Below, one piece after another: positions 41,901 to 59,166 of a stretch of 64,000 nucleotides of DNA. Below the pieces are notes generated by a model. It had not been told where the DNA came from, did not search any database, and worked only from the letters and a program-made list of their open reading frames with translations. Source of the DNA: Candidatus Omnitrophota bacterium (GTDB taxonomy: Bacteria > Omnitrophota > Gorgyraeia > Zapsychrales > JBAZNR01); assembly GCA_041649175.1 (NCBI GenBank), contig JBAZNR010000001.1, positions 386,332 to 450,331 on the forward strand, given 5' to 3'. A program made the translations under genes and the position numbers. Each line of letters starts with the position of its first letter. Position 1 is the first letter of the stretch.

Positions 41901-44900
41901 AGATTGGTATCTTTTTCCGTTACCCCATATTTTTCTTGAAATCTTTTAGATAATCCGCGGCCGCCATTGGTGAGATCTAACCAAACTCCTACCTTCCCGC
42001 CTTCTTTGGCTTGCGCGTAATCCACAACACCCCAAGAAACAATGCCAAGCCCCATCCATCCGCCAAAGCCCATTAAAGCGGCGTTTGTTTGCCCGGGTTC
42101 GATAATCGCGTGGCGCGTCAATGGCTTTTCTTTTCCGTCCGGGCCTAAGCCTATTCTCACAAATTTATCTTGAGGAAGCCCTAAAACAGCTATTGTTCCT
42201 TTGGCAAATTTTTCTCTTTGTTCTGCTGATTTGGTAGCGAGCCTGGCGGATAATCCAGCAACGCCTTCCACTAAGGCACCGGTCGTATACGTTATATTTT
42301 GTACAGACGCCTTAGCCAGCGTGGCGTGCATGTTATTAACGTAATAACTTTGCGCAAGCGCGCCGGGTAAAGCAATTAACTGCGCTTCATATTGCTCTTT
42401 CAAATAAATTTCTTTATTTCCATCGTAGGCCTCATATTTTTCTCTGATTTCCGCCCTAGATAACCCTTTATCTTCCGTTTCATTGAAACGGCGCATATCT
42501 TCCTTCATCCGGCGCGACTCACGCACATAATCAATGCCCATACCGGCTGCGGCCGTGACGGAATTAATATAATGATCAAATCCGCTAATGGTCCACTTTT
42601 GGCCGTTTTGAGGAATAGAGCCTTGATACGTATAAAAATCATTGGACATTCTGGCTAAATCGCCATAAGAAACCATGCCAAATTTTTGGAAGAATTTTCC
42701 GACTGTGGAAGCCACTTTAGCTATATCACTTTTTTTACCCCACACCGCTTTTTGCTTATCTATTGTCGTATCATCTTGGAGGTCCTCTACTTTTCCAAAG
42801 GCCCCCATATAAGCTCCGTGCGCAATAGCGGTAGCAAAGAAAGCAATGGTCAAAAATTGTGTAGCTGACATTCCTTTTTTTCCGGTCTCCGCATTGGCAA
42901 CATTATTTTGATACGCTTGATCTAAGGCGAAAGCAAAGAGTGAGCCAACCATGCCCTGTCCAAAAGGAGAGGCCATAAACCGAGAAAGACTATCCCAAAC
43001 AGATGAATCTTTGCTAGAACCACTCGTCCCCGCTCCGAAGAAATTCGTATCAAACCCATTCAAAGCATAACGGCTGCCGGTTTCGCCTAAAACGCCAATG
43101 GCTTCCACCAAATAATAATGTGTTGAAGGGTTAACGGGTTTCCCGAAGAAAAATTTATTTTTAGTAAAATACCATTTCATCAATGTCCCGGTACCTTGCG
43201 TGATCAAACCAGGTGTCAGAGATTTAAATTGATCGAAAGCCGCATGCAAAGGATTATTCGAAAGCTCTATCTGACCTCTTGGATTGTCTATATTAAAGTC
43301 GCCTTGTAACCATCCTCTTTCGAGACCCATCTTAGACCCGGCCCAATCCATACTGACCGTGGTGCCGGCTAAAACCGGAGTTGAAATCCCGGTCATCAGA
43401 ATGTTGGAAACACCTTGGCGGAGAATATCGTTACCAATGTTTTTAACGAGAGGCTGGATAATATGCTTGTCGGCTAAAACTTCTATGCCGGCTTTAGCCG
43501 TGCCATAAAGAAGGCCTCTGGCAAAACCACCACCAAAAGCCGATAAAGCACTACCCTGCGGACCCATCTGCCCTAGCATTGCTTGCAACTGTGTTGGGCC
43601 GGTAAGATTGCCCGAATTCCATGCAATCTGCTCTCCAACCATTGAGGGAGTAACGCCTGACAACCCAGTAGATTCCAATGTTCCCCCGGTTAATTGTTGA
43701 AATTGCGTGGGGCCTGTGAGATTACCCGCTTCCCATGCGGCTTGTTCAGTTAAGATATTTGGATTTTTTAAAATTTCTTTGGAAGCCGCATCAGCGCCTG
43801 CTTTAGCACCTAAATTATTTGCGTACGCGCTAACCCCCATGGACACACCAACCGTAAATGCCGTCGAAAAGATAAAAGCACCGGTTTCATTCCACCAGCC
43901 CTTCATCACGCCGATCTGTCCTAAGGTACTTCCCAAACTTCCTATCCCGTTGCTTATGGCAAAAGCTCCGGGATTAAATCCGGTGGAAGCAAAATTGACC
44001 AAACTCATGAGCGCTTGCGTTCCCACAACGGTCCACATGTCGCTACGGCTAAAAGCTACTCCCGGTAAAAAGTCATGGGCGCGGCTGTGCCACTGAGAAC
44101 CCCAAACAAAGGCTTGAGTAGCTTCGCTGACAATTTCCGCTTTTTCTGATTGGACAATACTTGGCGCTAAAACGAACCCGGTAGATTGTTTGGCAAAATC
44201 TTCGCGCGAAATGGTAAGGGACTTTCCAATATCGGTGTACGAAACCTCTTTGTCATCAATCGCTGTTACAGTAATGAAATGTTCAGATTTGAAGTTGGCG
44301 ATGAATGGCGGTCTTAAATTGAAAATCTCTTCAGCCGGTAAACGAACAGCTTGGACATTTAATCCATAAGCATTGGCGATCTTATTCAAAGCAAAAAGAG
44401 AGGTCTTAAGCTTCGGCTCACCCGGCTCAATAATGTTGTTCAAAAGGTCCACTGCTAAAGTAACCACCGAAAGCTCTTCTAAAGCCACTTCAATGTCGCG
44501 GCTCATGAGAAGATCTTTAAGGGCGTAAACACCGCAGTTTAAAGGGTGAATACTGGGATCGCGCAGCCAAGAATAAATCTTTTTGATGCGGCTGTCGGTC
44601 ACGGTTGTTTCTGACTTTATTTCAATGGTTCTGTCTTCTAATTCCGGATTGGAGACATTTTGACGGGGCAGTCTGAGGTTGATTTGGGGCTTTTCTTTGT
44701 AGGCGATTTGTTTTAAAAGATTCTCAACGCTTCCGGCAATTTGGGCAGAAGCGACTTCTTCGGGAGAGGCATCGGGGCTAACGGCATTGACAGCTTTGTC
44801 TTTCCAGAGAACAGCCGGATTATAGTTAAACGCCCAGCTGATCTGGTCAGGAATAAAAATGACAACAATGAGCAAGGCCACCGTTCTGATCCAGGCCTTA

Positions 44901-45909: not shown

Positions 45910-46815
45910 TTATCGTTTCTGTGAAGCGCCGCCAACCAAATTCTTCATAGGATTGTTCTGCATGAAATCCAAGAATATGGGAGCGCCAACGAGAATAGCA
46001 ACAACGGGGAAAATGAAAAGCAAAAGAGGAACAAGCATTTTTAAAGGAGCTTTGAGAGCTACTTGCTCGCCACGGCGAAAGCGCGCCAGGCGCATATCTT
46101 CCGATAGGATATTGAGCGCCTCGGCAACCGAGGTTCCCATTCTATCCGCTTGGATAAGCGTACGGGTAAACGTGGTTAGATCCGGCAGGTCGTATTTTTT
46201 GGACAAATCGCTTAGGGCATTGCGGCGCGACTTTCCGACATTGATCTCCTGCATGATCAAATTCAGCTCATCCGCTAAAGCCGAAGGCGGTGTTTTCTCA
46301 ATGACCCATTTTAAGGCCAACATAAAATCAAGGCCGGCATTAACGCATAAGCCTAGAAGGTCAATGGTGTCAGGAAGCTGTTTGACGATAGCATTTTTGA
46401 CTTTACTGATCTTTCCTTTAAGCCAAAACTCCGGCAATATATAGCCAATGGCAAAACCCATCAGCGATGTAAATAGGATCACATCTGCCTGAATAAAGGG
46501 CAAAGTTGCCCCCAAAAGCCCTCCAATGATAAGCTCTTTAATGAGCAAGAATTCTTCGGGAGACATATCAACCTTGGCTAAAGCTAAATCCTTTGAAATA
46601 CGGGCCCCTAGAGGGCCAATACACAGCGGTTTATTGAACATCGCCAAACCCTTAATAAGGGCTCGCGGAGCATCTGTCCATTTCTTCTTTCTATCGGTTG
46701 CGGCTTTTTCGTGAACCAAAGAAAGGGTAGGGCGAAGCACCTGGTCAAAAGGCAAAATGGCATAAGCCAGAAGCACTCCGGTAGCAAAGGCTAAAATAAG
46801 GATGACAATTTGCAT
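45910..46815 (-). CDS. tadC: Tad/Flp pilus assembly inner-membrane protein TadC-like (T2SS-F family)
   Basis: A 301-aa ORF with the GspF/T2SSF-type layout of TM helices and a cytoplasmic helical domain. It lies immediately after a paralogous T2SSF gene, matching the tadB-tadC order. Confidence 0.75.
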   Translation of the reverse strand: MQIVILILAFATGVLLAYAILPFDQVLRPTLSLVHEKAATDRKKKWTDAPRALIKGLAMFNKPLCIGPLGARISKDLALAKVDMSPEEFLLIKELIIGGLLGATLPFIQADVILFTSLMGFAIGYILPEFWLKGKISKVKNAIVKQLPDTIDLLGLCVNAGLDFMLALKWVIEKTPPSALADELNLIMQEINVGKSRRNALSDLSKKYDLPDLTTFTRTLIQADRMGTSVAEALNILSEDMRLARFRRGEQVALKAPLKMLVPLLLFIFPVVAILVGAPIFLDFMQNNPMKNLVGGASQKR

Positions 46816-46837
46816 TATTTTCTCACCAGTTAGTTAA

Positions 46838-46966
46838 TTTCCAATAACCAAATGCCAATGACCAGATAAACTTCAATAACCAATTTTCTAATTTCCAAAC
46901 GTTTTTAACATTGATTATTGATAAATTGGGAATTATCTGGATGTTGAAATTTGGTCATTGGTTATT
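46838..46966 (+). repeat. MITE-like intergenic repeat, copy A, about 130 bp, with imperfect terminal inverted repeats (aataaccaa..caatgacc / ggtcattggttatt)
   Basis: It fills the whole tadB-tadC spacer. Its first 100 bp are about 88% identical to copy C at 52,069-52,165 and it is the reverse complement of copy B at 47,915-48,040. The shared core is ccaaacgtttttaacattg. Confidence 0.6.
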
Positions 46967-46969
46967 ATC

Positions 46970-47827
46970 CTAAAAATCCTTAAACGTACTTATTTTCCAT
47001 ATCAAAAATGCTCCGACGAGCTCGGAGGCGACAGCGTACATCAAAAGCATTTTCCCAATATCGGAATTAAACATCTGGTCAAAGAAATTCTTATTGGTCG
47101 CTGTCACAATAAAGGCAAAACCAATAGGTAAAAGCGACATAACAACGCCCTGAATTCTTCCTTGCATCGTTAAATTATCCAGGTTTTGTTTTATCTTTTT
47201 ATTCTCCCGGATAACGCCGATGATGCGGGCAAAAATGACGGGTAAATTACCGCCGGTTTCCCGGGCTAAAAGAATAGCCGTGATCATCTGATTTAAAGCG
47301 GTGGAAGGCACCCGGTCATAAAGGTGCGCGAACGATTCTTCTAAAGACACGCCCATTTTATTCTCGCCGAGCAAAATGGCAAATTCCTGATTAATAGGGT
47401 CCGACATTTCTTCGGTGACCACTTCGATAGCTTGAATAAGGCTTAAGCCGCCGCGCAAAGAGCTTGACATGATCATCAGCGCGTCAATGAGCTGATCATT
47501 GAATTTATCCATTCTTTTTTCTGCTAAAACCTTGATCCAAAGCCCCGGGCCGATGAGGCCTAAAAATACGCCTAAGCCTAAACCAAACCAGCGAAATTCC
47601 GTCGGAGCGACAACAAATCCGGCTACCGCGCCGATCACAGGCGCGAATGTATAAAGCACCACAATACGGTTAATTTTTGAGCGCATGAACATGCGGTCCA
47701 TTTTATCGGAAAGTCCTTTGGCGCGTTTTTGATTGATCTGCATAGCCAGATTAAAAGCGGAAGGGGCAATGACCCATGTTAAAAGGCCGGCGGCAGAGAA
47801 GATGAGCAGCATAATAAAAAGACGCAT
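46970..47827 (-). CDS. tadB: Tad/Flp pilus assembly inner-membrane protein TadB-like (T2SS-F family)
   Basis: A 285-aa ORF with the T2SSF-like domain (...LDALMIMSSSLRGGLSLIQAIEVV...) and N- and C-terminal TM helices. Confidence 0.75.
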   Translation of the reverse strand: MRLFIMLLIFSAAGLLTWVIAPSAFNLAMQINQKRAKGLSDKMDRMFMRSKINRIVVLYTFAPVIGAVAGFVVAPTEFRWFGLGLGVFLGLIGPGLWIKVLAEKRMDKFNDQLIDALMIMSSSLRGGLSLIQAIEVVTEEMSDPINQEFAILLGENKMGVSLEESFAHLYDRVPSTALNQMITAILLARETGGNLPVIFARIIGVIRENKKIKQNLDNLTMQGRIQGVVMSLLPIGFAFIVTATNKNFFDQMFNSDIGKMLLMYAVASELVGAFLIWKISTFKDF

Positions 47828-48048: not shown

Positions 48049-48567
48049 CTACTGGCAGATATTATCATCCGCGTTGATGCAGTCTTCAATGCAGTTTTGT
48101 TCTTCGGTCAATTCGCAACTTCGTTCGCAATCTCCGTGAAATTGGCTGGGATTACCGTTGGATTGGTTGCACCGATCACGACAGATCGTTGCGCATGCCG
48201 GATCGTAAAACATGCTATCAGGATCACAGAACATATCATAACAACCGTTGAGACAGGCTTGATAGTGGTTATAAAGCCCTCCTTCACAGCCAGACACGCA
48301 AGACGTGTGGATGGGATCATAACAAGCATTGTAGCATTGCAGGCTATACCAGCCTTCGTGCTCACCTTGAGCCCAAAGGCATTCGGTTGTTTTTTGCGGG
48401 TCATACTGGCGGCCTTCGCTGAACACTTCCGACGCTGATTTCCAGCGCCCGGCAAGTCCGCGCAAAATATATTTTTGCATTAACAGAATCGCACCGATCA
48501 TTAGAATGATCAAGGCGACATATTCTAAAGTTGAAGCAGCTTTTTTTTGACAAAAAAATTTAATCAT
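48049..48567 (-). CDS. TadE-like pseudopilin with a cysteine-rich C-terminal domain (172 aa, about 22 Cys)
   Basis: The N-terminus KKAASTLEYVALIILMIGAILL matches the TadE/Flp-type class-III signal and hydrophobic stem. The C-terminal half is packed with CxxxC and CxC pairs. Confidence 0.6.
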   Translation of the reverse strand: MIKFFCQKKAASTLEYVALIILMIGAILLMQKYILRGLAGRWKSASEVFSEGRQYDPQKTTECLWAQGEHEGWYSLQCYNACYDPIHTSCVSGCEGGLYNHYQACLNGCYDMFCDPDSMFYDPACATICRDRCNQSNGNPSQFHGDCERSCELTEEQNCIEDCINADDNICQ

Positions 48568-48570
48568 CGT

Positions 48571-51500
48571 TTACCATTGGCATTGGTCGCTAAATTTGAC
48601 ATTAAATCCCCAGGGATTGCCGTTATGCCAGAAATATTCCGCGCAAGATAAAGACATGACCCCGTGAGAAAGCAAGCTTTCGGCGCGCGCCCGGCAATCG
48701 TCATCCTTCACCATAAAAGCACCCTCAGTCGGAGTATCGAGACAACCACTTAAACTATTGATATTGCCGACAGAAGCAGGGCCTTTTTGCGGATGAGAAA
48801 ATGACATACCCCAAATCGGCATGGCATTAGCAAATCGAAATGATAAGTCTTTATCCTGATCCCAGCGGGTGACACGCACTTTTACTTTGCCGCCTTTGAA
48901 ACAACCCGTATGATGATACTCGTCTTGTTCATTGCACCAACTCACCTTGTCATATACATCACCTACTGAATTACAGCGGTGTTGATTAAATGTCCCGTGG
49001 ACAGAGTTCTTTACTCTTGGCCAGTCCGGTTCAGGAAGTCCAGGTCGTCCGCATCCGCCATCACAGCGCGTTGGTATCTTGGCTTCTACTCTCACAATAT
49101 GCCAACAACCCTTTTCTGAGCCGTCCGGATTACGCCCGCATCCTTTATCTGTTTTCCATCCATAGATCGCGTAAGGCGGCAAAGAAGGAATATCGCCCAG
49201 AAGAGAATCTTCGACGCTGCTAATGCCATTGGGGAGGTTGGCTGTTGTTAAAAACTCACTGATCTTTGTTCGCGCGTCAGCAAGTTTGGTAGCAGCATCA
49301 CCGGCTTTTGTATAGGCATCGCTTAGAAAATTGTAACGCTGTTGATATTTTTCCCTTAAAAGCGCTATATGTTCTAGAAATCCTGGATCAGCGCACTGCG
49401 GCCAAATACCGTTAACTGTATCGTATCCTAACGTGTTGTTGATAAAGTGAGTATTGAACAAGTGGCACGGCGTGACATCGCCGGAAGCATTACAGCTGTT
49501 ATAGCAAGCCTGCAGCATTTCAATGGTTCCATTGCCGGCGGGATTTTGGTAACAGCTAAGAACTTGCGGAATAATAGGAACACCCGGATAAGGAGCGATA
49601 TTATTATTGATCCACGTAACATTATTCGGACAAAATACCGATCGCATGCCTTCTGAATCCCAATATCCATGATACTGGCTATTGCCGTTGCGCCATCCGG
49701 ATAATTTTGCCCGCCACATATTTAAAGGCCCGGAGGCTTTCGCTAAGTCATAAAGAGCATTTCCATTAGAATTATCAATCCAGGTCTTAGCCTCATTATA
49801 CCAATCGTTAAACGAACTATAAATATCCTCGGGTGGCATGGCTAATGTTTTGGTGGCCCACACAATAAAATCATCCGTTGTTATTTTCATTTGGTCTAAG
49901 GAATCTTCCGGCCATTCGGAGGCGGGTGTGCCTGGGCTAGCGCTAAACGCATCCTCACAAGACTGATTGGCGGCGCAATGATCCGGATTATCATCATGAT
50001 CTAGATCTGCCGAGGGATCTAAGCAGCTTGGACAATCCCCCGGGCAATGTTTTCCGACACAGTTTTGATTATACGGCCACGTTTCTGAACAAAACTGATC
50101 ATCACCGCGTTTCCACTTAGGCCTGCTTCCGGTACAGGGAGCAGGCCCGAGATCCGCGTTGGTGACACAGCGGTCTTCTTGAGCGATCACGCATGTGGCA
50201 TTATGAATATTATCAAAATAGGCATCATCGTCCTGGTTTGTCGTCGTTAAACAACAGCTTTCTCCGGAACAATTTCCCGTAAGCGAAAGGCGCCCGACGG
50301 CATCAAAACTATCGCATCCCGGATAACGCGCATCACACCAAAAACACCCCTCGGGATGGTCCGGATTATGACTTGTATTATTTTGCAAATATGTCCGGTC
50401 GGCAACTTTCCAAAGGGCCGGAAATAAGCCGGTGGCATCTTCCGCGCGGTATTTTCCCATCACGTCACTAATCTGAGGATTGTTGTAGTTTCCCGGCGGG
50501 GAAGTTTTAAGCAGAGGATTTTCATCGTCGTGACCGAGAATTTCTCGAAAAGACTTAAAAGCATTGTTGCCGTTTTCATAAATGGGATCATAGACATAAG
50601 GCCAAGAAGTTGCCGGACAGGAGCTTGAGGGATCTTCCGTCGCATTGCAACGCAGTTCAGCTTCATCTTCCGTGCAGCATTCCGGGCGGATCTCTTGAGT
50701 AACGCCACGCCTCCACCACCCACCGCCAACAGGTATTGTCACCGTTTCTTCCGGCAAACAACAACAATTGCATTCCGCAGGACGGTTAGGATCCGTCACA
50801 TTGCAACAAGCATGCTCGCCGGCAGACTGCTGATGCGTATTTCCATCCGTACAGGTTGGCGTAAACGGATCCCACATGCCCCAATCATCATCGTGCACCG
50901 TTCCGCTTCTATCGGTATAAGATTCATAGATCAACTTTGAAAGAAGATCCTGAAACTGAGCAATTTTTTCAATATTTTCTAAACGCTCCTCCACCACATC
51001 AGAATTTTCTTGGATTTCCCGAACACGATTAGCATAATAATAACCGAACCGATTGGTTTTATCTCCTACGGAATCATCTGTCCCGCACCGATCACAAACT
51101 CCGTCCATATCTTCATCGAGATTATCTGGCATTTCTTTATTATCATCCACCACATTTTGAATCCCCATAAGGATCCCACGCTCTAAAAACTGGTCTTGCT
51201 GGGTCATTTTAGGAAACATCTTATTATAAAATTCGCTTAAACCGGGTTGAAGGACAGCAACAGAAAGAACGAAATTGATAGTAGCTCCGGCAAGCCCGGC
51301 ACCAGCCGAAATAGTCAACACTGTGGCTGCTTGTATAGCTGCAGGTGTCGCAGCTCCCGCCGTAAAGATAATAACGGCAATCAAAATAATCGCTGCTATA
51401 ACCAAAGTCGTTAAGTTCCTAAGAAAATTATGATCGGTCCCGCAAACATGCAAGTCCGCGCCGCCGTCTAAAACGTATTGATACAAATACTGCGAATAGC

Positions 51501-51720
51501 TGGCGATCTCAGATGCCAAAAACGCCGCGCCCAAATTAGCCGCGATGGTCACCTGCGCTTTTGTTTGCGCCACGCGCCCCAAATTCATCACCACCGCCAA
51601 AAAGATGATCAAAACCGCGGTGATCAAAATGAGGATAAGCGCCACTTGCCCTAAGCGTGCGTGCTTTGGCTTGATCGGCCTTAACGGATGAAGCAGTCTA
51701 TTTAAAAATTGAAAAATCAT
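48571..51720 (-). CDS. Giant TadG-like pilus-associated protein (1,049 aa) with a Cys-rich extracellular region
   Basis: The N-terminus RLGQVALILILITAVLIIFLAVVMNLGRV matches the TadG/TadE-like N-terminal motif. It is followed by a large Cys-rich segment (CCNVTDPNRPAECNCCCLPEE, CDRCGTDD...). Typical TadG is about 500 aa. Confidence 0.6.
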   Translation of the reverse strand: MIFQFLNRLLHPLRPIKPKHARLGQVALILILITAVLIIFLAVVMNLGRVAQTKAQVTIAANLGAAFLASEIASYSQYLYQYVLDGGADLHVCGTDHNFLRNLTTLVIAAIILIAVIIFTAGAATPAAIQAATVLTISAGAGLAGATINFVLSVAVLQPGLSEFYNKMFPKMTQQDQFLERGILMGIQNVVDDNKEMPDNLDEDMDGVCDRCGTDDSVGDKTNRFGYYYANRVREIQENSDVVEERLENIEKIAQFQDLLSKLIYESYTDRSGTVHDDDWGMWDPFTPTCTDGNTHQQSAGEHACCNVTDPNRPAECNCCCLPEETVTIPVGGGWWRRGVTQEIRPECCTEDEAELRCNATEDPSSSCPATSWPYVYDPIYENGNNAFKSFREILGHDDENPLLKTSPPGNYNNPQISDVMGKYRAEDATGLFPALWKVADRTYLQNNTSHNPDHPEGCFWCDARYPGCDSFDAVGRLSLTGNCSGESCCLTTTNQDDDAYFDNIHNATCVIAQEDRCVTNADLGPAPCTGSRPKWKRGDDQFCSETWPYNQNCVGKHCPGDCPSCLDPSADLDHDDNPDHCAANQSCEDAFSASPGTPASEWPEDSLDQMKITTDDFIVWATKTLAMPPEDIYSSFNDWYNEAKTWIDNSNGNALYDLAKASGPLNMWRAKLSGWRNGNSQYHGYWDSEGMRSVFCPNNVTWINNNIAPYPGVPIIPQVLSCYQNPAGNGTIEMLQACYNSCNASGDVTPCHLFNTHFINNTLGYDTVNGIWPQCADPGFLEHIALLREKYQQRYNFLSDAYTKAGDAATKLADARTKISEFLTTANLPNGISSVEDSLLGDIPSLPPYAIYGWKTDKGCGRNPDGSEKGCWHIVRVEAKIPTRCDGGCGRPGLPEPDWPRVKNSVHGTFNQHRCNSVGDVYDKVSWCNEQDEYHHTGCFKGGKVKVRVTRWDQDKDLSFRFANAMPIWGMSFSHPQKGPASVGNINSLSGCLDTPTEGAFMVKDDDCRARAESLLSHGVMSLSCAEYFWHNGNPWGFNVKFSDQCQW

Positions 51721-51730
51721 TATGTATTTC

Positions 51731-52060
51731 CTATTCTATTTCCTCTTCCGAACCGTCATCCGGAGGAGTGTCCCAGCCGTTAAAAACAAGATTCATGTCT
51801 GTCCCATCGTAGAAATCTGTTTGTAGCTGGCGCAAAGGCCCCGACATTGGGGAAGTGTCCCAATTTGAACCTTCGTTCACGAATCTGTCCGATAAGCTTT
51901 GATCATGCGCGATGCGCCGTTCGGCTAAACTTACTCCCGCCCATTGAAACGCCTTAATACAGCCGTAAATAATAAGCAGGATCATAATGAAACAAAAAGT
52001 GAATTCCATTGTCACTTGGGCCTGTTTGTTGCAAGATTTCTTAAAAATGGGACTTATCAT
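51731..52060 (-). CDS. TadE-like pseudopilin. The ORF track starts it at a TTG at 52,081, inside repeat C. An ATG at 52,058-52,060 (MISPIFKK...) is more likely.
   Basis: The TadE-like N-terminal motif is NKQAQVTMEFTFCFIMILLIIYG. The C-terminus is acidic. Confidence 0.55.
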   Translation of the reverse strand: MISPIFKKSCNKQAQVTMEFTFCFIMILLIIYGCIKAFQWAGVSLAERRIAHDQSLSDRFVNEGSNWDTSPMSGPLRQLQTDFYDGTDMNLVFNGWDTPPDDGSEEEIE

Positions 52061-52068
52061 ATTTAAAG

Positions 52069-52165
52069 TTCCAATCACCAAATTCCAATGGCCAGATAAA
52101 TTTCAAAAACCAATTTTCTAATTTCCAAACGTTTTTAACATTGTTTATTGAAAATTGAATATTAT
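52069..52165 (+). repeat. MITE-like intergenic repeat, copy C, apparently 3'-truncated
   Basis: ttccaatcaccaaattccaatggccagataaatttcaaaaaccaattttctaatttccaaacgtttttaacattg... is about 88% identical to copy A. It sits upstream of the small TadE-like gene. Confidence 0.55.
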
Positions 52166-52228
52166 TTGGTTATTGTTGCTTGTATCCTGCCTGCCTGCCG
52201 GCGAGGCAGGGTTATTTTCTTTTCTTTA

Positions 52229-53752
52229 TCACTTCACCGGATTAACATCATCCACCGGCGTTACCCATTTACGACCGCCGCTATCGGCAATAGCGCTTCG
52301 GACATAAAGCATTTTCTCAGCCTTGTTATAACAAGTTTGATTAAGATTTGCCTCTGACGAACATTCTCCCGCATTGGCCACGCAAACTTCAACAGCCGGA
52401 TTATCACAACCAGGATTCCAAGCACATTTATCGCCGTGGCTTCCGCAGCTGTCTGATCCATAGTTACAATATTCCGAATCATTAGGATTGAGATCAAGGC
52501 AACCATGCCGCGCCCAAAAGGGAACTTCTCCACAGGCCTCGTGGATATTATCATCTCCGGCTAAACAATTCCACATACGCCCCGTATCGTTGCTCAGTTG
52601 AAACTGCCGTTCAATAACATCGGTACAGTTTCTTTTTTGCGTATGACGAGTATATTGCTTGTCATCGTCATACAACTTTCCCTCTTCAACGGACATATGT
52701 GTTCCCTCAAAACACACCGAACGAATATAACTGTCTTGCTGAAATCCGGGGCGAGTTCCTTGCGGCCGTCCGGTAGCAGCTGTCGCCGGCGTATAGCCGC
52801 CACGCTCATCCCAAGTATTGTACGTTGTATCGATATCCCCATCCTGATAATCCATCACGTAAAACGTTTCAATGTTTGAAGTGCCTCCTTGGCAAATGGT
52901 ATCTAGGCCGCCGGTGTTACGCATGGTGGCAATGGCATCGCATTTTCCGTCGAAACCGCAGGCTTTTTGCACAAATTCTTCTTTTAAATCTCCGTCTAGA
53001 TCCAGCGAAATATTTTTTCCTTTATCAACATCGACACTGCCGCGTCTGATATCCACCGGTTTCCATTGCCAAGAAAACCTGCAGCGGGTGATGGGGACAC
53101 CTTCTACATCCGTATCTCCGTCCCTATCGAGATCGAAACGTTCATTTATTTGCGCGGCATTACAACTGCCTCGTCCTTCCGAACAATACGGGGAAGCCGC
53201 CGGAGCACAAAAACTATCATCCGCATTAACGATCTTCGTGTAAGCAACGGGGCATCCGATATTACCCGGCAGGCACATTTCATTCCATCCGAAATGGGGA
53301 TTGCCCGAAGCACCCGGAACTTGGATGATCTTAAAAGAAGCAGTAGAAAAATTGAATTGTTTTCCGTTAATATGAATGTCTTGAACAGGTATTTGTTCTG
53401 TATGCCCAAAGTCCGTTCCCATAAATAAATTGCGGGTAAATGTGCCTGTTCCGCCGAGAATATACGGCGTGCGGGAGCTGGAGCCGTATTTACCAGTTTC
53501 TACCGTTTTTCTATCTTCAATAAAAAGAACGCTGGCTGTATTGCGGGATGTGTTATTGGCTTGTCCGGAAAGAAATGAATTTTGCAAAGCTAAGCGCATG
53601 GCGCCCAAAGACTGATTTTGCACATAATTAAAATTGACCGCGTAGCGGATCATAGCCCCGAGGACAAAAATGAGGATAGCGCCAAAAATGGCCAACTCAG
53701 TGACTGTTTGGGCTTTTGGTTGGGCGAAAAACTTCTTTATTCTTTCTCTCAT
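52229..53752 (-). CDS. Large TadE/pseudopilin-like protein (about 507 aa) with a Cys-rich and Asp-rich ectodomain. The start is probably the ATG at 53,749-53,751 (MRERIKK...). The ORF-track start at 53,818 (TTG) would overlap flp7.
   Basis: The N-terminus KAQTVTELAIFGAILIFVLGAMI matches the TadE/Flp-type motif. The ectodomain has many Cys residues and Ca-binding-like D-x-D-x-D runs (DLDRDGDTD, DLDGD). Confidence 0.6.
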   Translation of the reverse strand: MRERIKKFFAQPKAQTVTELAIFGAILIFVLGAMIRYAVNFNYVQNQSLGAMRLALQNSFLSGQANNTSRNTASVLFIEDRKTVETGKYGSSSRTPYILGGTGTFTRNLFMGTDFGHTEQIPVQDIHINGKQFNFSTASFKIIQVPGASGNPHFGWNEMCLPGNIGCPVAYTKIVNADDSFCAPAASPYCSEGRGSCNAAQINERFDLDRDGDTDVEGVPITRCRFSWQWKPVDIRRGSVDVDKGKNISLDLDGDLKEEFVQKACGFDGKCDAIATMRNTGGLDTICQGGTSNIETFYVMDYQDGDIDTTYNTWDERGGYTPATAATGRPQGTRPGFQQDSYIRSVCFEGTHMSVEEGKLYDDDKQYTRHTQKRNCTDVIERQFQLSNDTGRMWNCLAGDDNIHEACGEVPFWARHGCLDLNPNDSEYCNYGSDSCGSHGDKCAWNPGCDNPAVEVCVANAGECSSEANLNQTCYNKAEKMLYVRSAIADSGGRKWVTPVDDVNPVK

Positions 53753-53759
53753 CAATATT

Positions 53760-54086
53760 TTATTCTCCGGCCACGGCGGAAGAGCCGCGGGTTCGCTCGA
53801 CACTATTTGAAGAATCAATACGAGTCGTCACTATTCCGTCTTCTCCATTCACTGTTGCGTTACTTGTTGTGATCCAGCTCACAGCGTCGGAAGTGATCGT
53901 ATGATTAATATGAGTATTCATCAGCGTCGGGTCATATTGCTCGCCTAAATTATCCACCGATTCTTTCCAGTTTCCCTGAATACCACGCTTCACATAAGTA
54001 CTGACCGCCACAAAAGCCCCTAAAATAATGATGATCAAAATCGCGTATTCCAAAGTTGTCTGAGCCTGATGTTTTTTTATGCGCAT
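53760..54086 (-). CDS. flp: Flp-type pilin paralogue 7 (108 aa)
   Basis: The N-terminus KKHQAQTTLEYAILIIIILGAFV fits the Flp motif (x)QxTxEY plus hydrophobic stem. Its stop lies 7 nt before the next gene. Confidence 0.65.
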   Translation of the reverse strand: MRIKKHQAQTTLEYAILIIIILGAFVAVSTYVKRGIQGNWKESVDNLGEQYDPTLMNTHINHTITSDAVSWITTSNATVNGEDGIVTTRIDSSNSVERTRGSSAVAGE

Positions 54087-54088
54087 AT

Positions 54089-54418
54089 TTACTCCCCGGG
54101 CGTAAAGCCCATATTGACCAAAGAATCCGATGAAGATGTTATTTCGTCATTAAAAACATAAGTAATATCATTGACCTGATGAATGAGCTGGCGATTCATA
54201 ATGCTATGACTATTTGAAACAGAATTGACCACATATTGATCCGTCGCTCCGGATTCTTGTTCCGACGCGCTTTGCGGAGCCAGCTGATCGGCGGCTAATC
54301 TTACCACATCTTGTAATCCGCGCCTGATGGGTGGGGACATCACCACCAAAGCGGTGGAAACAATTCCGACCAAAATAATGTATTCCATCAACGATTGGCC
54401 GCGCGTCATTTTTAACAT
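54089..54418 (-). CDS. flp: Flp-type pilin paralogue 6 (109 aa)
   Basis: The N-terminus MTRGQSLMEYIILVGIVSTALVV carries the G/QSxxEY class-III motif. Confidence 0.65.
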   Translation of the reverse strand: MLKMTRGQSLMEYIILVGIVSTALVVMSPPIRRGLQDVVRLAADQLAPQSASEQESGATDQYVVNSVSNSHSIMNRQLIHQVNDITYVFNDEITSSSDSLVNMGFTPGE

Positions 54419-54421
54419 ATT

Positions 54422-54793
54422 TTATCCGCCTTCTCCCGGAGGAAGTTGTACAGATACCGTATTAACAGACGTTGTATCGTCCTGTGACTTCCTGGAAATT
54501 CCAGTGCTTCCGCCGGGCAAAAGGATCTTATTTTGTTGAATACTGCGTTCTATATCAGAATTCGTCGCGGCATAATACGGTTCATATTCGCCGTAAAGCC
54601 TGCCGACGGCATTCGCTTCCACGCTGGCGTCTTTGACGATGTCCATCATGGTTGATTTGGCGTCATGAAGCCGCCCTTGCAAAGCCCGTTTTAACACAAT
54701 GGTCATCGCCATCAGCGCGGCGATCACCAGCGCGATCATGATAGCGTGTTCATTGGCCATTTGTCCGTTTTGACGAAAGAATATTTTACGCAT
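54422..54793 (-). CDS. Flp-like pilin paralogue 5 (123 aa), a divergent copy
   Basis: The N-terminus RQNGQMANEHAIMIALVIAALMAM is a divergent Flp-like motif. Confidence 0.5.
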   Translation of the reverse strand: MRKIFFRQNGQMANEHAIMIALVIAALMAMTIVLKRALQGRLHDAKSTMMDIVKDASVEANAVGRLYGEYEPYYAATNSDIERSIQQNKILLPGGSTGISRKSQDDTTSVNTVSVQLPPGEGG

Positions 54794-54880
54794 AAATTTC
54801 TACGAAATGTATTTTATATTTTAGATGAAAACAAGGTAAATCAAAAACGAAATTTGTTGAAGCTGCCCCGACTCGTGTGC

Positions 54881-55011
54881 TGCGGCGAAATTCTTTTCAA
54901 TAATTTCGCCGCACTCGTCGAGGTTCACTTTCTTCGTCTACAAACGTAGATGAAGAAAGTGAAAAAACACACATGGCTTACCCGAAGGTTTTTCTCTCCG
55001 GGTAAGCCATG
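54881..55011 (-). terminator. Three consecutive strong hairpins between flp4 and flp5, acting as an attenuator or partial terminator inside the operon
   Basis: At 54,972-55,011 a 13-bp stem catggcttacccg / cgggtaagccatg is followed on the minus-strand RNA by UGUGUUUUUU. At 54,926-54,961 there is a 16-bp perfect stem cactttcttcgtctac-aaac-gtagatgaagaaagtg. At 54,881-54,913 there is a 12-bp perfect stem tgcggcgaaatt-9-aatttcgccgca. Confidence 0.55.
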
Positions 55012-55029
55012 GTTTACAAACAATACAGG

Positions 55030-55365
55030 TTAATTTCCCCAATACTCCTGCTGTTGGTTGATGATCACCGTTTCAGAGTCGACATTGACCGTTTCTGCCT
55101 CAGTCAGCTCTGAGCGTGTAACGCCAGCATTGAACGTTTCTCTCGTTGAGCTAGTGGAGCTGGTTGTGCTATTAACCCTGGTGTTCCCGGGAGAGAATTG
55201 TTCGCCGATATCGTCGGCGGCCGATCTCAAACGCCCCTGAACACCTCTTTTAATGTAGAATTGAATGGACAGCAAAGCGCCGATGATAATAATGATCAAA
55301 ACAGCGTATTCCAACGTGCTTTGCGCCTTCATTTGTCTTAGTTTTTTTAACATTTTTATGTTCAC
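55030..55365 (-). CDS. flp: Flp-type pilin paralogue 4 (111 aa)
   Basis: The motif is KAQSTLEYAVLIIIIIGALL. A canonical ribosome-binding site, AGGAGGTG, precedes the ATG. Confidence 0.65.
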   Translation of the reverse strand: MNIKMLKKLRQMKAQSTLEYAVLIIIIIGALLSIQFYIKRGVQGRLRSAADDIGEQFSPGNTRVNSTTSSTSSTRETFNAGVTRSELTEAETVNVDSETVIINQQQEYWGN

Positions 55366-55399
55366 CTCCTAAAGAACTTAAGTTAGTGTGATCGATATT

Positions 55400-55801
55400 T
55401 TACGGAACCATTTCTATTTCAACGGCGCCACCACCTCCACCACCGCCGCCACCATCAGCTCCGGGGCCATTATATTGGTATTCCTGGAAACCACCTTCCA
55501 GGCGCTGAATATCGCTATTAGACGTCATCCCGATACCGCTTTCCGCTTCATTCATCACAACCGATGACTCGGAATTACGCGAGACATCGAATGCACTGGT
55601 CAGCTGTGTCGGTTCAAACTGCGTCGTTGTACCCAGCTCTGATGTATTATCGGCCATATACTGAGTAGCGTCATAAACTCTGGCCTGCAGAGCACGTTTG
55701 GCGTAAACCTGCATGGCAATGACCGCGCCGACGACAAGCGCGATCAAAATCGCGTACTCGGCGGTATTTTGCCCTCTTTTTTTGTTTAATTTTCTGAACA
55801 T
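55400..55801 (-). CDS. flp: Flp-type pilin paralogue 3 (133 aa) with a C-terminal poly-Gly tract of 10 residues
   Basis: The motif is KKRGQNTAEYAILIALVVGAV. The ribosome-binding site is AAGGAGGTG. The Gly tract is encoded by the ggyggyggy repeat at about 55,425-55,455. Confidence 0.7.
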   Translation of the reverse strand: MFRKLNKKRGQNTAEYAILIALVVGAVIAMQVYAKRALQARVYDATQYMADNTSELGTTTQFEPTQLTSAFDVSRNSESSVVMNEAESGIGMTSNSDIQRLEGGFQEYQYNGPGADGGGGGGGGGAVEIEMVP

Positions 55802-55849
55802 TTTATTTACACCTCCTTAAAAGGCTTTGATGTTCACATTAAAAATTAG

Positions 55850-56095
55850 TTACGGAATGACCACATCTTCATTGCCACCGCCGCCACCGCCACCTGAAGT
55901 ATGCGAATTGGAAAGTTTATCGGCCATGGTTTCCATTCCGTTAACGGTTGTCCCTAATGTACGGTCTAAGGCCGGGCGCAAAACTCCGCTGGGCCCTAAG
56001 AAAACGATGAGAACCGCCACAACTGCCGTCACTAAAATAATATACTCTAGTGTGCTTTGACCTCTTTTACTTTTTAGCTTCATGTTTTCATTCAC
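55850..56095 (-). CDS. flp: Flp-type pilin paralogue 2 (81 aa) with a C-terminal G7 tract
   Basis: The motif is KRGQSTLEYIILVTAVVAVLIVF. Confidence 0.7.
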   Translation of the reverse strand: MNENMKLKSKRGQSTLEYIILVTAVVAVLIVFLGPSGVLRPALDRTLGTTVNGMETMADKLSNSHTSGGGGGGGNEDVVIP

Positions 56096-56143
56096 CTCCT
56101 TAAGAGTGAACTTTTGTATGCTCCATAAAGCGAAGCAATATTT

Positions 56144-56299
56144 CTAGTTATCCCTCAATCCTTCTTCTACATTCTTTTGAGCTGCCTGAACCGCCCGGTA
56201 AACATAAGTACTCATGGTGATCATCGCCGCTGATACAAGAGCAATCACGAGGACATATTCTATTAGATTTTGTCCGTTTTTATTTTTCAGCCTCATCAT
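56144..56299 (-). CDS. flp: Flp-type pilin paralogue 1 (51 aa), not in the ORF track because it is under 60 aa
   Basis: Hand translated as MMRLKNKNGQNLIEYVLVIALVSAAMITMSTYVYRAVQAAQKNVEEGLRDN*. The ribosome-binding site AAGGAGGTG precedes the flp2 start in the spacer. Confidence 0.6.
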   Translation of the reverse strand: MMRLKNKNGQNLIEYVLVIALVSAAMITMSTYVYRAVQAAQKNVEEGLRDN

Positions 56300-56682: not shown

Positions 56683-59166
56683 TTAATTTTTCTCCTGATT
56701 TTCGATGCGGATTTGAAGCTTGCACCCCAAGGGATCACGCACATCGCTTTCGTTAAGGCGCGCCAGGGCATATTCCAGGTCTTTGCGGTAAAGATGGGTT
56801 GGGGGAAGAACAAGGCTCACAATGATACTATCCTTGCTCCTTTGAACAGAGCCGGATATTTGGTAAAAACGTTCTCTGATATCAGAAAAATTAAGCTTTT
56901 CATAGTGCAGTGGAAAGAAATGGCGCTGGCAATAGTTATTGAGCGCCGATAGAAGAAACTCAATATTCGTCTCCAAAGACGGCTCAGCCCTCAAAAGATT
57001 GTATTGGCCTCCTCCTTCTAACAAGTTAACTCGGTCATGGGACGGAGTAACGCTCACAACTCCATAAGAAGCTTTTTCGGTCCGGGCGGTAAAATCCTGA
57101 TAACTTTCTTGAAAGTTTGGCCAGCGAGCAAGAAAAGCGGCGATTACATCTTCCGCCGACATTTCTTCCGAAAGGATATTGGTGACGATCGCCATCACCG
57201 GCCAGTCTAAGGCGCTATCACGCAAAAGAAGGGCTCTCACGCGCGTTTTTTGCCCAATGAGCGGTTGTTCCAGTTTTGTTTTAAGTTCGCTGTAATACAC
57301 TTCTTTTCCGACGGAATCACAATAAAAATGATTGATCAAGCGCGCGTCTTCTTCGATAAATTTTCTGCATTCTTCCTGCCAGGGCCAGGCGCCGGCCATA
57401 AAAAGCCTTCGTTTGGCCGGAATAGCCGTAAACTTGGCGATCTCTTCTTTGTTGCCGTCAAAAATACCGATGCGGGATATGTTTTTTCCGGATGAATTTT
57501 CGAAACTTAAAAAAAGCTCATAGAACTGTTTCGCAAAACTCTTGTATCCGGGAATACTATTAATAATAACGGGCTGAACATTGCTAATGATATTTGAAGA
57601 AAGAGACTCAATGATCTTGTTCATGGGCATCGTAAATGCAGATTGAACATTATTTTCATTCCAAATCGTTTGAAATTGCCCGTCGACGCATATTTCAGAT
57701 TTATCCTGCGCTGTTATCTTGATATAGCTTATTTCAGAAAATGTCTGCGAGTACTCATTGGCCATTTGCATGGAAAGACTTTTGAGATTTTGAACGCTGG
57801 TGGTTAGTTTTTCTAATATTTCCGCGTTAAGATGTTGTTTTTGTTTGATGCCGTTGATCCCCCAAAGGCCGTCTTGGGTATAATTCTTAATATCCCCGAT
57901 TTTCTTAATATTAAACGCCGGAAAATATAAAAGCACTTCGCTGGCTAAATTGATATCGACCGGCAAATAAACTTCACTATGCTTGCTTAAAAGTCCGCCG
58001 AGCATAGACGCGTTCGATAACTGCCACTGGGCGGCTTTTAAAAAGAAACATCCCATCCCATCCCAAACGGGAGGTTTTTCTCCCGAAATAATTTCCGGCT
58101 TCTTTTCCGGAGAAAAATATTCCGCTTCCGGAGTCCATATTTTGTCATCAGAAGAGGCGGCCGGTTTTGGTGTAGCTTCTTTTGGCTTCTCTTCTTTGGA
58201 AGTTTCTTTCCCGGCAAAAGGATCGGCTAGTAGGGGGCTTTCCTGCGGAACCGTTGGCGCGATTTCCGGCATAGATTCCGGAACACTGTCCACAACAGCT
58301 TCGGGAACAGCCTCCGGTGCGGCTTCAGGAGCAGCTTCAGGAGCAACTTCAGGCACAGCCTCTGGCGCGACTTCAGGAGCGGCTTCAGGAGCGGCTTCAG
58401 GAGCAGCTTCAGGAGCAACTTCAGGCACAACTTCCGGGACAACTTCAGGGGTAATTTCCGGCGCAGGCTCCGGTACGGGTTCTGGGACACTTTCTTGAGG
58501 CGCGGGTTCAATTTTCTTTTCGGGAATAGATTGTTTTTCTTCCACGATCGGCGCTTGAGCCATAGGATCCGGAAGAAGTGAAATATATTCTTGCGGTTCT
58601 TCTTGTTCCGGTTCCAAAATAGGCAAAATAGGCTCTGTGGCGCTGGGCTCTTTCTCTATTTGAACTTCCTTAGAAATATCAGCTAGGGCTTCCGACTTCA
58701 CTTCGGTCAGATCCGGTAAAATAATGGGAGGTTTTTCGGAAGACTTTTCAGGAAGTTTTTCCTCTTTGGACATTTTTTCTTGCGAGGCTAAGTCTATTTT
58801 TCCAAGTTCCACGGAAATATCTTTATTTTTTGACGGTTCGACCGGAAATTGCTCTTTCGTAACCGAAATTTTTGGCGGCTCGTCATGAACAGAGAGCAGT
58901 GCTTGTTTTTCCGTAAATAATTGTTCTTTTCTTTTTTCGGGAATCTTGAATTTCTGCGGCTTGCCTTCTTTTTCGGCCCTTCTTCCGACGGGACTGCTAA
59001 GAGCTGAACTTTTCAGAATGGCGTTGACGGAGGATTTGGAAACTTCGCATTGAAATTTTTCGCGGATCAAATCGGAGATCTTGCGGCAGCTAAGATCGGG
59101 ATTATCCCGTTTTTGCGTGACAACAAAATCAATAACTTCCTGTTTTAATTTGTAAACAACACCCAT
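56683..59166 (-). CDS. 827-aa protein with an N-terminal HTH, a long Pro/Glu/Ala-rich region (including a PE(A/V) tandem repeat) and a C-terminal domain of unknown function, possibly transposase-derived
   Basis: The HTH-like N-terminus is ...LSCRKISDLIREKFQCEVSKSSVNAILK. A Pro/Glu/Ala-rich segment about 250 aa long includes the uninterrupted tandem repeat PEVVPEVVPEVAPEAAPEAAPEAAPEVAPEAVPEVAPEAAPEAAPEAVPEAV. The C-terminal 450 aa contain an RW...E...K stretch, AAFLARWPNFQESYQDFTARTEK, that loosely recalls the DDE-transposase YREK region. No TIRs were seen. Confidence 0.55.
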   Translation of the reverse strand: MGVVYKLKQEVIDFVVTQKRDNPDLSCRKISDLIREKFQCEVSKSSVNAILKSSALSSPVGRRAEKEGKPQKFKIPEKRKEQLFTEKQALLSVHDEPPKISVTKEQFPVEPSKNKDISVELGKIDLASQEKMSKEEKLPEKSSEKPPIILPDLTEVKSEALADISKEVQIEKEPSATEPILPILEPEQEEPQEYISLLPDPMAQAPIVEEKQSIPEKKIEPAPQESVPEPVPEPAPEITPEVVPEVVPEVAPEAAPEAAPEAAPEVAPEAVPEVAPEAAPEAAPEAVPEAVVDSVPESMPEIAPTVPQESPLLADPFAGKETSKEEKPKEATPKPAASSDDKIWTPEAEYFSPEKKPEIISGEKPPVWDGMGCFFLKAAQWQLSNASMLGGLLSKHSEVYLPVDINLASEVLLYFPAFNIKKIGDIKNYTQDGLWGINGIKQKQHLNAEILEKLTTSVQNLKSLSMQMANEYSQTFSEISYIKITAQDKSEICVDGQFQTIWNENNVQSAFTMPMNKIIESLSSNIISNVQPVIINSIPGYKSFAKQFYELFLSFENSSGKNISRIGIFDGNKEEIAKFTAIPAKRRLFMAGAWPWQEECRKFIEEDARLINHFYCDSVGKEVYYSELKTKLEQPLIGQKTRVRALLLRDSALDWPVMAIVTNILSEEMSAEDVIAAFLARWPNFQESYQDFTARTEKASYGVVSVTPSHDRVNLLEGGGQYNLLRAEPSLETNIEFLLSALNNYCQRHFFPLHYEKLNFSDIRERFYQISGSVQRSKDSIIVSLVLPPTHLYRKDLEYALARLNESDVRDPLGCKLQIRIENQEKN
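58230..58500. repeat. Near-perfect 9/18-bp tandem DNA repeat encoding the PE(A/V) array (gcttcaggagcRgcttcaggagca...)
   Basis: About 15 units are seen directly. This explains the artefactual ORFs 57983..58498(+) and 58227..58511(-). Confidence 0.7.

Follow-up and report, generated by a model that had tools for sequence, protein, structure and literature searches.

Minor-pilin sets with a proposed role in priming and capping the fiber include GspH-I-J-K of the type II secretion system (T2SS) and FimU-PilVWX-PilY1 of the type IVa pilus (T4aP), both of which are cited in PMC12075869 and PMC10191384. GspK, the largest T2SS member, lacks Glu5, Ca2+-type loops occur in both GspK and PilY1, and PilY1 is a protein of about 1,100 amino acids (aa) that is not itself a pilin. 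Here, we analyzed four adjacent genes, encoding proteins of 507, 116, 1,049, and 172 aa, in a Tad pilus operon of an uncultured Candidatus Omnitrophota bacterium. They lie in a stretch of 64,000 nucleotides (the window; contig JBAZNR010000001.1, positions 386,332 to 450,331) on a 1.23-Mb contig of a metagenome-assembled genome (MAG), and everything reported below comes from genes, sequence, and predicted models. We judge it reasonably likely that these four proteins serve an Omnitrophota Tad, or type IVc, pilus as its minor-pilin (pseudopilin) set. Matched by size and type, the 507-aa protein would correspond to TadF/KilL, the 116-aa protein to TadE/KilM, the 1,049-aa protein to TadG/KilN, and the 172-aa protein to a Flp-like adapter of the KilK/KilO kind.

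The names KilK to KilO come from the Kil Tad pilus of Myxococcus xanthus, in which the TadE/F/G homologues KilM (short), KilL (extended), and KilN (large) make up interchangeable Tip complexes, assisted by the small Flp-like minor pilins KilK and KilO (PMC12075869). In these complexes, N-terminal helices form the base, the large C-terminal domain lacks a homologue in the PDB, and numerous disulfides are predicted; in many bacteria, TadG-type proteins are proposed to supply the backbone of tips of this sort (PMC12075869). For Omnitrophota themselves, passages of three accounts of giant genes state that the giant proteins attack prey cell walls and that the giant genes are preceded by a conserved T2SS-like/Tad locus containing many genes with class III signal peptides (bioRxiv 10.1101/2023.11.21.568195; PMC10066038; bioRxiv 10.64898/2026.06.07.730766). 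As those passages describe it, the published locus is the present one, with gspD/E/F-like genes, rcpC, a peptidyl-prolyl isomerase (PPIase), and many class III signal genes. Other subunits are called "less well conserved" there, and the same passages are silent on large Cys-rich proteins, on pseudopilins, and on homology to TadE/G.

The operon is of the Tad/Cpa (type IVc) type, and every gene lies on the minus strand. It runs from the end of rcpC through a secretin, a TadZ-TadA/CpaF fusion, a DUF192 gene, an 827-aa repeat protein, and seven small pilins to the block of 507-, 116-, 1,049-, and 172-aa genes, which is followed by TadB, TadC, and a giant open reading frame (ORF). A preliminary description of the window had pointed to three unusually large, Cys-rich, TadE/TadG-like pseudopilins. 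All three ORFs were recovered exactly in place and are identical to the annotated hypothetical proteins WC676_01445 (172 aa), WC676_01450 (1,049 aa), and WC676_01460 (507 aa). The setting is a genuine Tad/Cpa operon, with the secretin, TadZ-CpaF, Flp/class III pilins, and TadB/TadC together. The 116-aa gene, which sits between the 507-aa and 1,049-aa genes, had been overlooked and belongs to the set. The block and its internal features are as follows.

52229 to 53752, minus strand: 507-aa protein, a proposed large minor pilin in a KilL/TadF-like position (from ORF, motif, and predicted fold)
53693 to 53716, minus strand: predicted prepilin-type cleavage motif of the 507-aa protein, K-A/Q-T-V-T-E-L, residues 13 to 20, with Glu at +5 (from conservation)
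53108 to 53134, minus strand: Asp-rich loop DLDRDGDTD of the 507-aa protein, residues 207 to 215
52976 to 53002, minus strand: loop DLDGDLKEE of the 507-aa protein, residues 251 to 259, a putative Ca2+ site of the form DxDxDxxxE (from conservation in 52 relatives)
52829 to 52852, minus strand: third Asp-rich loop of the 507-aa protein, residues 301 to 308
51731 to 52081, minus strand: 116-aa candidate TadE-family pseudopilin, motif QA/QVTMEF (from TadE profile matches in orthologues)
48571 to 51720, minus strand: 1,049-aa TadG-like protein (from ORF, family profile, and predicted model)
51526 to 51651, minus strand: Tad (PF13400)-like segment of the 1,049-aa protein, residues 24 to 65, G/QVALILILITAV...MNLGRV...AANLGAAFLAS
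51250 to 51429, minus strand: hydrophobic helical hairpin of the 1,049-aa protein, residues 98 to 157, specific to its family (from Kyte-Doolittle hydropathy)
48049 to 48567, minus strand: 172-aa probable pilin paralogue (from BLASTP to neighboring pilins)
48388 to 48567, minus strand: pilin-like N terminus of the 172-aa protein, residues 1 to 60, KKA/ASTLEY
48055 to 48381, minus strand: Cys-rich module of the 172-aa protein, residues 63 to 171, with seven CxxxC

The Kil and Omnitrophota loci are both Tad loci of a predator or putative predator, and both encode short, extended, and large TadG-like subunits together with an extra Flp-like pilin. Both also have lineage-variable ectodomains, many Cys residues or predicted disulfides, and a large C-terminal domain without a PDB match. 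Features that mark the Tip-complex genes are found here, namely adjacent short, extended, and large TadG-like genes in a tad locus, conserved Cys, and no PDB match (PMC12075869). This likeness is one of description, and the sequence comparison of the ectodomains covered canonical TadE/TadG controls, to which they showed no similarity. Unlike in Kil, the large Omnitrophota subunit spans 1,000 to 1,700 aa and carries a hydrophobic hairpin, the 507-aa subunit fails TadE profiles, and the adapter-like pilin has a Cys-rich module of its own. The Omnitrophota locus is coupled to giant genes, whereas the Kil locus is coupled to a type III secretion system-like apparatus.

With canonical TadE, TadF, and TadG, the Omnitrophota proteins share a basic leader, Gly or Ala at position -1, a hydrophobic helix, Glu at +5 in the TadE types and not in TadG, and residence in a tad operon. 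Canonical TadE/TadG controls, however, are 139 to 599 aa long with 0.3 to 2.7% Cys and one N-terminal hydrophobic segment, whereas the 507- and 1,049-aa proteins hold 4.1 and 4.5% Cys, give profile matches that are absent or below cutoff, and have unrelated ectodomains. The order of genes differs too, as the Omnitrophota block lies before tadB/tadC and the canonical TadE/F/G genes lie after them. Likeness to the T2SS and T4aP sets extends to the four members, the largest of which lacks Glu5, to the Ca2+-type loops, and to the PilY1-like size; the block proteins gave no Pfam, NCBIfam, PDB sequence, or fold match to Gsp or Pil families, and the machine is of the CpaF/TadZ/RcpC type, not GspE/L/M. 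We find the four proteins best described as a divergent, enlarged, disulfide-rich tip set of the TadE/F/G type, which is a recently described kind of tip and not a new system.

In comparative genomics of the locus, the same block of four genes recurred in about 40 Omnitrophota species, in most cases with a giant gene after it. Our scan, which took one genome per species, yielded 48 loci, and counts were made on those with enough flank. The loci come from Omnitrophota MAGs or from bins labeled "uncultured Planctomycetales/Planctomycetia," which we took to be coarse, unconfirmed labels of the same lineage. A 507-like gene lies just upstream of the 1,049-like gene in 40/40 loci and a 116-like gene just upstream in 39/40; a Cys-rich 172-like gene, with 6 to 14 Cys, lies just downstream in 39/41. 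An open-ended ORF of at least 1,000 aa, either a giant or a truncated large ORF, is found downstream in 23 of 27 loci.

The features expected of a prepilin (basic leader, small residue at -1, Glu at +5, and about 20 hydrophobic residues) are present in the 507-, 116-, and 172-aa proteins, each of which has one N-terminal hydrophobic segment. Across relatives, Gln at +1 is invariant in the 507, 116, and 1,049 N-terminal alignments, and Glu at +5 is invariant in the 507-like and 116-like sets. By its profile matches, the 116-aa protein appears as the clearest TadE-family member of the block: the TadE profile (PF07811) matched 24 of its 33 orthologues, always from the profile start, with a best E value of 4.3e-5. 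Two orthologues gave E values of 0.0047 and 0.013, and the window protein itself reached 12 bits (E 0.24) against a gathering score of 22.9 bits.

For the 172-aa protein, a TadE/TadG/Flp-type N terminus had been claimed, and comparison with the neighboring pilins supports a pilin-like start. Its first 51 to 60 residues are 43 to 50% identical to two neighboring pilins (BLASTP E 1e-9 and 6e-13), one of which passes the class III signal profile PF04021 (27.5 versus 23.7 bits). The window protein has no Pfam match; two of its 32 orthologues match PF04021 (best 1.1e-4), and two match PF04964. From these alignments, we read it as a pilin paralogue with a new C-terminal module. A word-indexed search had left the 172-aa protein an apparent orphan, which was overturned by positional orthologues in related loci, and an hhalign comparison of its family with an alignment containing the query itself was discarded as circular, with pairwise BLASTP used instead.

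The 507-aa protein starts with ATG; an upstream TTG would give 529 aa and overlap the preceding pilin gene. It has a short basic leader, a class III-like motif, an N-terminal helix of about 50 residues, and a beta-rich, Cys-containing ectodomain with three Asp-rich loops, and its family holds at least 172 related clusters. No Pfam domain was found among 120 listed relatives. The family motif reads (K/R)(A/G)/QTA-ELAvFGAILIFV, with Q+1 and E+5 invariant; in the window protein, these residues are Q15 and E19, which are at least 90% conserved in the 52-relative full-length alignment and invariant in 46 N-terminal segments. Using hhalign, the motif paired with the local pilins (probability 90.8%, E 1.2e-6). 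When the family hidden Markov model (HMM) was run against a control set of 42 proteins, including six annotated TadE/TadG proteins from Burkholderia, Moraxella, and Sulfitobacter plasmids, the top three were a Flp pilin, a TadE protein, and a TadE-like hypothetical protein. An AlphaFold2 (AF2) model built from the 52-sequence alignment (predicted local distance difference test [pLDDT] 77.8, predicted template modeling score [pTM] 0.74) places a helix at residues 2 to 64 ahead of a beta-rich domain, and the helix remaining after the predicted cut would be about 50 residues long, as in type IV pilins. Because of the motif, the hhalign match to the local pilins, and the predicted fold, we treat the 507-aa protein as a candidate pilin.

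Asp-rich D-x-D-x-D runs resembling Ca2+ sites had been described in the 507-aa protein, and they are indeed present and rank with its best-conserved parts. All 52 relatives aligned share D251, D253, D255, and E259, while D207, G212, D301, D306, and D308 are at least 90% conserved. Weak EF-hand and FG-GAP matches occur in some family members. From these patterns, the loops are predicted to bind Ca2+.

The 1,049-aa protein combines a Tad-type helix without Glu+5, a hydrophobic hairpin, a conserved DxDxDG loop (residues 202 to 207), a Cys-rich helical/coil region, and a C-terminal beta domain. In a word-indexed search, it had appeared nearly orphan (6 matches), which an exhaustive HMM search overturned by recovering 817 representatives at E<=1e-3, mostly of 1,000 to 1,700 aa. 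The preliminary description assigned it a TadE/TadG/Flp-type N-terminal motif. In support of this, 33 of 80 relatives match PF13400 at the N terminus (best E 3.1e-5), although the window protein scores below the cutoff. Its isolated N terminus reached E 0.0028 and 18.4 bits, below the cutoff of 22.3, over profile positions 1 to 41 of 47 starting at the Gly; on the full-length window protein, PF13400 was not detected, and 2 of 6 full-length relatives match (best E 0.013). The consensus of the family N terminus is GQVAvILILviAiALIFyAVsLNLGrvsQtKT-TTiAsN-gAS-lAS. When the control set was scored with an HMM of these N termini, annotated TadE/TadG proteins filled the top five of 42 places (5 of the 6), with two TadG types first and second. 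The window motif is LG/QVALI, and the +5 residue is I, V, L, or M in 50/50 family members, none of which has Glu there; read from their N termini, two TadG-type controls also have Ile at +5. A similarity of the N terminus to PsbT (36 of 80 members, best E 0.057) was dismissed as generic transmembrane-helix similarity.

The hairpin of the 1,049-aa protein gives it three hydrophobic segments. It is found in 50/50 family members and is absent at that position in the six canonical TadE/TadG controls. In the AF2 model from a 57-sequence alignment (pLDDT 72.2, pTM 0.72), the hairpin has a pLDDT of 38 to 52, and the model otherwise consists of a helix at residues 23 to 83, a strand at 91 to 95, a Cys-rich helical/coil middle, and a beta domain at 850 to 1043. 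A pilin fold, with an N-terminal helix of about 50 residues on a beta sheet, is seen in the predicted models of both the 507- and 1,049-aa proteins.

That the ectodomains are Cys-dense, as the preliminary description had it, was clear from the counts: 17 of 172 residues (9.9%), 47 of 1,049 (4.5%), and 21 of 507 (4.1%), compared to 0 to 1.0% in 11 of the 12 other operon proteins and 2.6% in the remaining one, the 116-aa ORF. Against a generous 1% background, the binomial P values of the excess are 3e-12, 7e-17, and 8e-8 for the 172-, 1,049-, and 507-aa proteins, respectively. The six small pilins scored have no Cys at all, and the giant ORF has 2 in 15,004 residues. The string CCNVTDPNRPAECNCCCLPEE that had been picked out earlier lies in the 1,049-aa protein. 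Of the CxxxC arrays described alongside it, seven are in the 172-aa protein and four in the 1,049-aa protein, but the 507-aa protein has none. Across loci, median Cys content is 2.1% for 507-like, 1.1% for 116-like, 3.8% for 1,049-like, and 6.4% for 172-like genes, as opposed to 0% in 214 filament pilins and 0.17% in giant ORFs. Cys enrichment is a trait of these gene classes rather than of one genome.

Conservation of individual Cys residues differs among the families. Of the 47 Cys in the 1,049-aa protein, about 28 recur in at least 84% of 57 relatives. The conserved core is 7 to 8 Cys in each of the 507 and 172 families, with eight Cys in at least 88% of the latter. Because only about 7 to 8 are conserved per family, much of the Cys excess of the 507- and 172-aa proteins is lineage-specific. 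Variable Cys in the 1,049 family are gained or lost together as the pairs C459/C469, C93/C916, C348/C358, and C566/C582; since kinship among sequences can yield such covariation without a disulfide, the pattern is suggestive only. C93 and C916 are co-present or co-absent across all 57 relatives (phi 1.0). C93 lies in the loop after the N-terminal helix, and C916 lies in the C-terminal beta domain. This hints at a disulfide that ties the C-terminal domain to the pilin helix, as if about 750 aa had been inserted into a pilin head. Judging from these alignments, the conserved Cys and covarying pairs of the 1,049 family fit extracytoplasmic disulfides. The near absence of Cys from the filament pilins and the giant protein is compatible with an export route for them that may differ from that of the tip proteins.

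The preliminary description had allowed that the Cys-rich regions might belong to a known unrelated family, and no such family was found in Pfam, NCBIfam, or the PDB. PDB sequence-profile searches gave only chance matches (E of about 0.1), Foldseek against the PDB found nothing at E<=0.001 for the 507- or 1,049-aa models (best E 1.8 and 1.5), and Foldseek of the 1,049-aa model against BFVD found no viral match at E<=0.001. The ectodomains resemble neither each other (507 versus 1,049, hhalign probability 0.3%) nor the canonical TadE/TadG controls. With no match to a family or structure already known, the adhesive or enzymatic function suggested for the tips in the preliminary description is a putative one. 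Nodulin_N, VP4_2, and HblD, the best matches of the target proteins, were rejected as noise.

Several results weigh against a minor-pilin set, and we regard the pilin interpretation in the preliminary description as partly supported. In whole-protein Pfam and NCBIfam scans, the 172-, 1,049-, and 507-aa proteins had no relevant match, and none of the four block proteins passed a curated cutoff. No 507-family N terminus out of 46 matched TadE, Tad, Flp, or class III profiles (E<=10), and neither the 507-aa protein nor its 52 full-length relatives matched PF07811 at its gathering score of 22.9 bits, so the claim that the 507-aa protein is a TadE/TadG/Flp profile member fails. Several members have Ala in place of Gly at position -1. 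Hydrophobic-helix similarity is prone to false positives, and HMM scores in the control set were low, at 5 to 10 bits. No prepilin peptidase (Peptidase_A24) gene was found in the locus from the PPIase and RcpC genes to the giant gene; a 167-aa ORF that heads the operon in a related locus (L003) was considered for this role and rejected for its lack of a Pfam match and its implausible sequence. Lastly, the conserved hairpin raises doubt that the 1,049-aa protein leaves the membrane for the filament. The hairpin may serve to keep the protein in the membrane, become buried in the tip bundle, or insert into a prey membrane.

If the four proteins are nevertheless minor pilins, each would insert into the inner membrane via its N-terminal hydrophobic helix, and a prepilin peptidase would cut the 507-, 116-, and 172-aa proteins at [GA]/Q-x-x-x-E-[LFY]. 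The ectodomains would fold in the periplasm before assembly, where numerous disulfides, and Ca2+ in the DxDxDG-type loops, would stabilize them. Through their N-terminal helices, the four proteins could then form a complex that primes the Cys-free Flp pilins for polymerization and comes to lie at the tip of the pilus. By analogy with GspK, which also lacks Glu5, the large TadG-like subunit would be outermost, with its lineage-specific surface facing prey or host cells or the giant cell-wall-degrading protein.

The alternative that survives best, although we think it unlikely, is that the proteins, and chiefly the 1,049-aa protein, are membrane-anchored parts of the assembly machine and not filament subunits. 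Helix and hairpin would hold the 1,049-aa protein in the inner membrane, and its Cys-rich domain would serve in the periplasm as a scaffold or gate, either lining up the platform and the secretin or taking in the giant protein. The three hydrophobic segments, with a hairpin in 50/50 relatives that canonical TadG/TadE controls lack, would suit such an anchor, even though the hairpin is modeled with low confidence. Missing Glu+5 in the 1,049 family and failure of the 507 family against pilin profiles point the same way, and Tomich and colleagues are said to have reported in 2006 that Aggregatibacter TadG is an unprocessed inner-membrane protein. The PF13400-type N terminus, however, belongs to the TadE/G pilin-like class, and the three partner proteins have Glu+5 motifs and a single hydrophobic helix. 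TadG-type proteins have, moreover, been modeled as the backbone of pilus tips (PMC12075869).

A second alternative, which we hold to be quite improbable, is that these are exported cargo or surface effectors, Cys-rich adhesins or toxins that borrow a pilin-like signal and leave through the secretin with no pilus tip involved. Known cargo of the T2SS uses Sec or Tat signals rather than class III motifs. In about 40 species, the genes also occur strictly in one copy each and always in the same order between pilin genes and platform genes, and helices of 50 to 60 residues at the N terminus are typical of pilin alpha-1. Cargo would, on the other hand, account for large, fast-evolving ectodomains without a known fold and for Cys-rich extensions that are lineage-specific, and a published account describes the machine, in a passage on the locus, as T2SS-like (bioRxiv 10.1101/2023.11.21.568195). 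Chance likeness among ordinary signal anchors, with unrelated Cys-rich periplasmic proteins inside the operon, is very hard to believe, for although the window proteins' own profile matches are all under curated thresholds and hydrophobic helices do give spurious matches (e.g., the PsbT similarity noted above), the matches recur from family to family with their start precisely at the [GA]/Q junction, Q+1 (three alignments) and E+5 (507-like and 116-like) are invariant, annotated Tad pseudopilins top the decoy test, and the 172-aa protein has plain BLASTP homology to pilins within a conserved synteny.

The remaining genes of the operon form the context of the proposed minor-pilin set.

62101 to 63720, minus strand: secretin with C-terminal TonB_C (Pfam)
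59927 to 62092, minus strand: TadZ (ParA/MinD-like)-TadA/CpaF fusion ATPase, 721 aa (Pfam; at most 58% identity to annotated CpaF proteins)
59572 to 59916, minus strand: DUF192 gene, directly after the ATPase gene
56683 to 59166, minus strand: 827-aa protein with long (A/V)PE(A/V) repeats and, at its N terminus, a weak HTH_32 match
53760 to 56299, minus strand: seven small Cys-free Flp/class III-signal pilin genes, as filament subunits (PF04021, alignment)
56144 to 56299, minus strand: 51-aa Flp_Fap-type pilin gene, MMRLKNKNGQNLIEYVLVIALVSAAMITMSTYVYRAVQAAQKNVEEGLRDN, below the length of the ORF listing
45910 to 47827, minus strand: TadB and TadC, T2SSF platform proteins (PF00482 E 4e-15 and 3e-15), directly downstream of the four-gene block
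2 to 44995, minus strand: giant ORF, longer than 15,000 aa and open at the window edge (stop-free frame 45013 to 2)
44165 to 44416 (approximate), minus strand: Peptidase_C39 domain, N-terminal in the giant ORF (Pfam)
17120 to 17410 (approximate), minus strand: Peptidase_M23 domain of the giant ORF (Pfam)
6104 to 6901 (approximate), minus strand: Glucan_synthase-like region of the giant ORF (Pfam)

The head of the operon, which lies beyond the right edge of the window, is seen in L003 (1033 to 2761), where it consists of a PPIase (Rotamase_2) gene and rcpC. TonB_C on the secretin, an unusual fusion for the RcpA/CpaC type, is kept wherever a related locus covers the secretin gene (L007, L008, and L009), and the TadZ-TadA/CpaF fusion is retained in related loci at 719 to 730 aa. 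A protein of 621 to 978 aa occupies the position of the 827-aa protein, between ATPase and pilins, in L002, L007, L008, and L009. Among the small pilins, the 81-aa pilin passes PF04021 (27.5 bits versus a cutoff of 23.7), and the 51-aa gene is the counterpart of the Flp_Fap-positive first pilin of related loci, with orthologues in L001 and L002 that match PF04964; it probably encodes the major Flp subunit. In L008 (16542 to 17039), a BrnT toxin-like gene and a small partner lie between the Cys-rich small pilin and tadB, so the four-gene block tolerates insertions. On a Moraxella bovis plasmid, a tad locus (L005, 11872 to 17779) has a DUF192 gene ahead of genes for a 333-aa TadE-family protein and a 1,516-aa RHS toxin, which is a further example of a large effector coupled to a tad locus.

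A giant protein adjacent to the block had also been proposed, and it proved real, with an uninterrupted frame in the window and a linkage to giant genes that is conserved across the loci counted above. Giant genes called in related loci encode 85,803 aa (L002) and 40,114 aa (L008). The M23 domain is a peptidoglycan endopeptidase, and the C39 and M23 domains and Glucan_synthase-like region of the giant ORF agree with the published view of cell-wall attack. We propose the giant protein as a functional partner of the four-gene set. Their co-occurrence is strong, although by itself it demonstrates no physical or functional link. A more daring idea, to which we lend little credence, is that the four-protein complex is the coupling device of a Tad-derived machine that exports giant (15,000 to 85,000 aa), Cys-free proteins. 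It would dock the N-terminal region of the giant protein and carry or thread it through the TonB_C secretin, and the hairpin of the 1,049-aa protein would insert into the prey envelope and anchor the site of attack.

Omnitrophota are widespread, ultra-small, and probably predatory or parasitic bacteria that bear record-size proteins. Our analysis proposes a role for four conserved "hypothetical" genes of these organisms, two of which represent large families (817 representatives and at least 172 clusters) without a Pfam domain or solved relative. A coupling device for giant proteins, if true, would be highly interesting. The separation of Cys-rich tip proteins from Cys-free filament and giant proteins offers a testable clue to how each is exported. 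As a minor-pilin set, the four proteins would extend the recently proposed customization of Tad pili by predators, through disulfide-rich tips, to a distant phylum.

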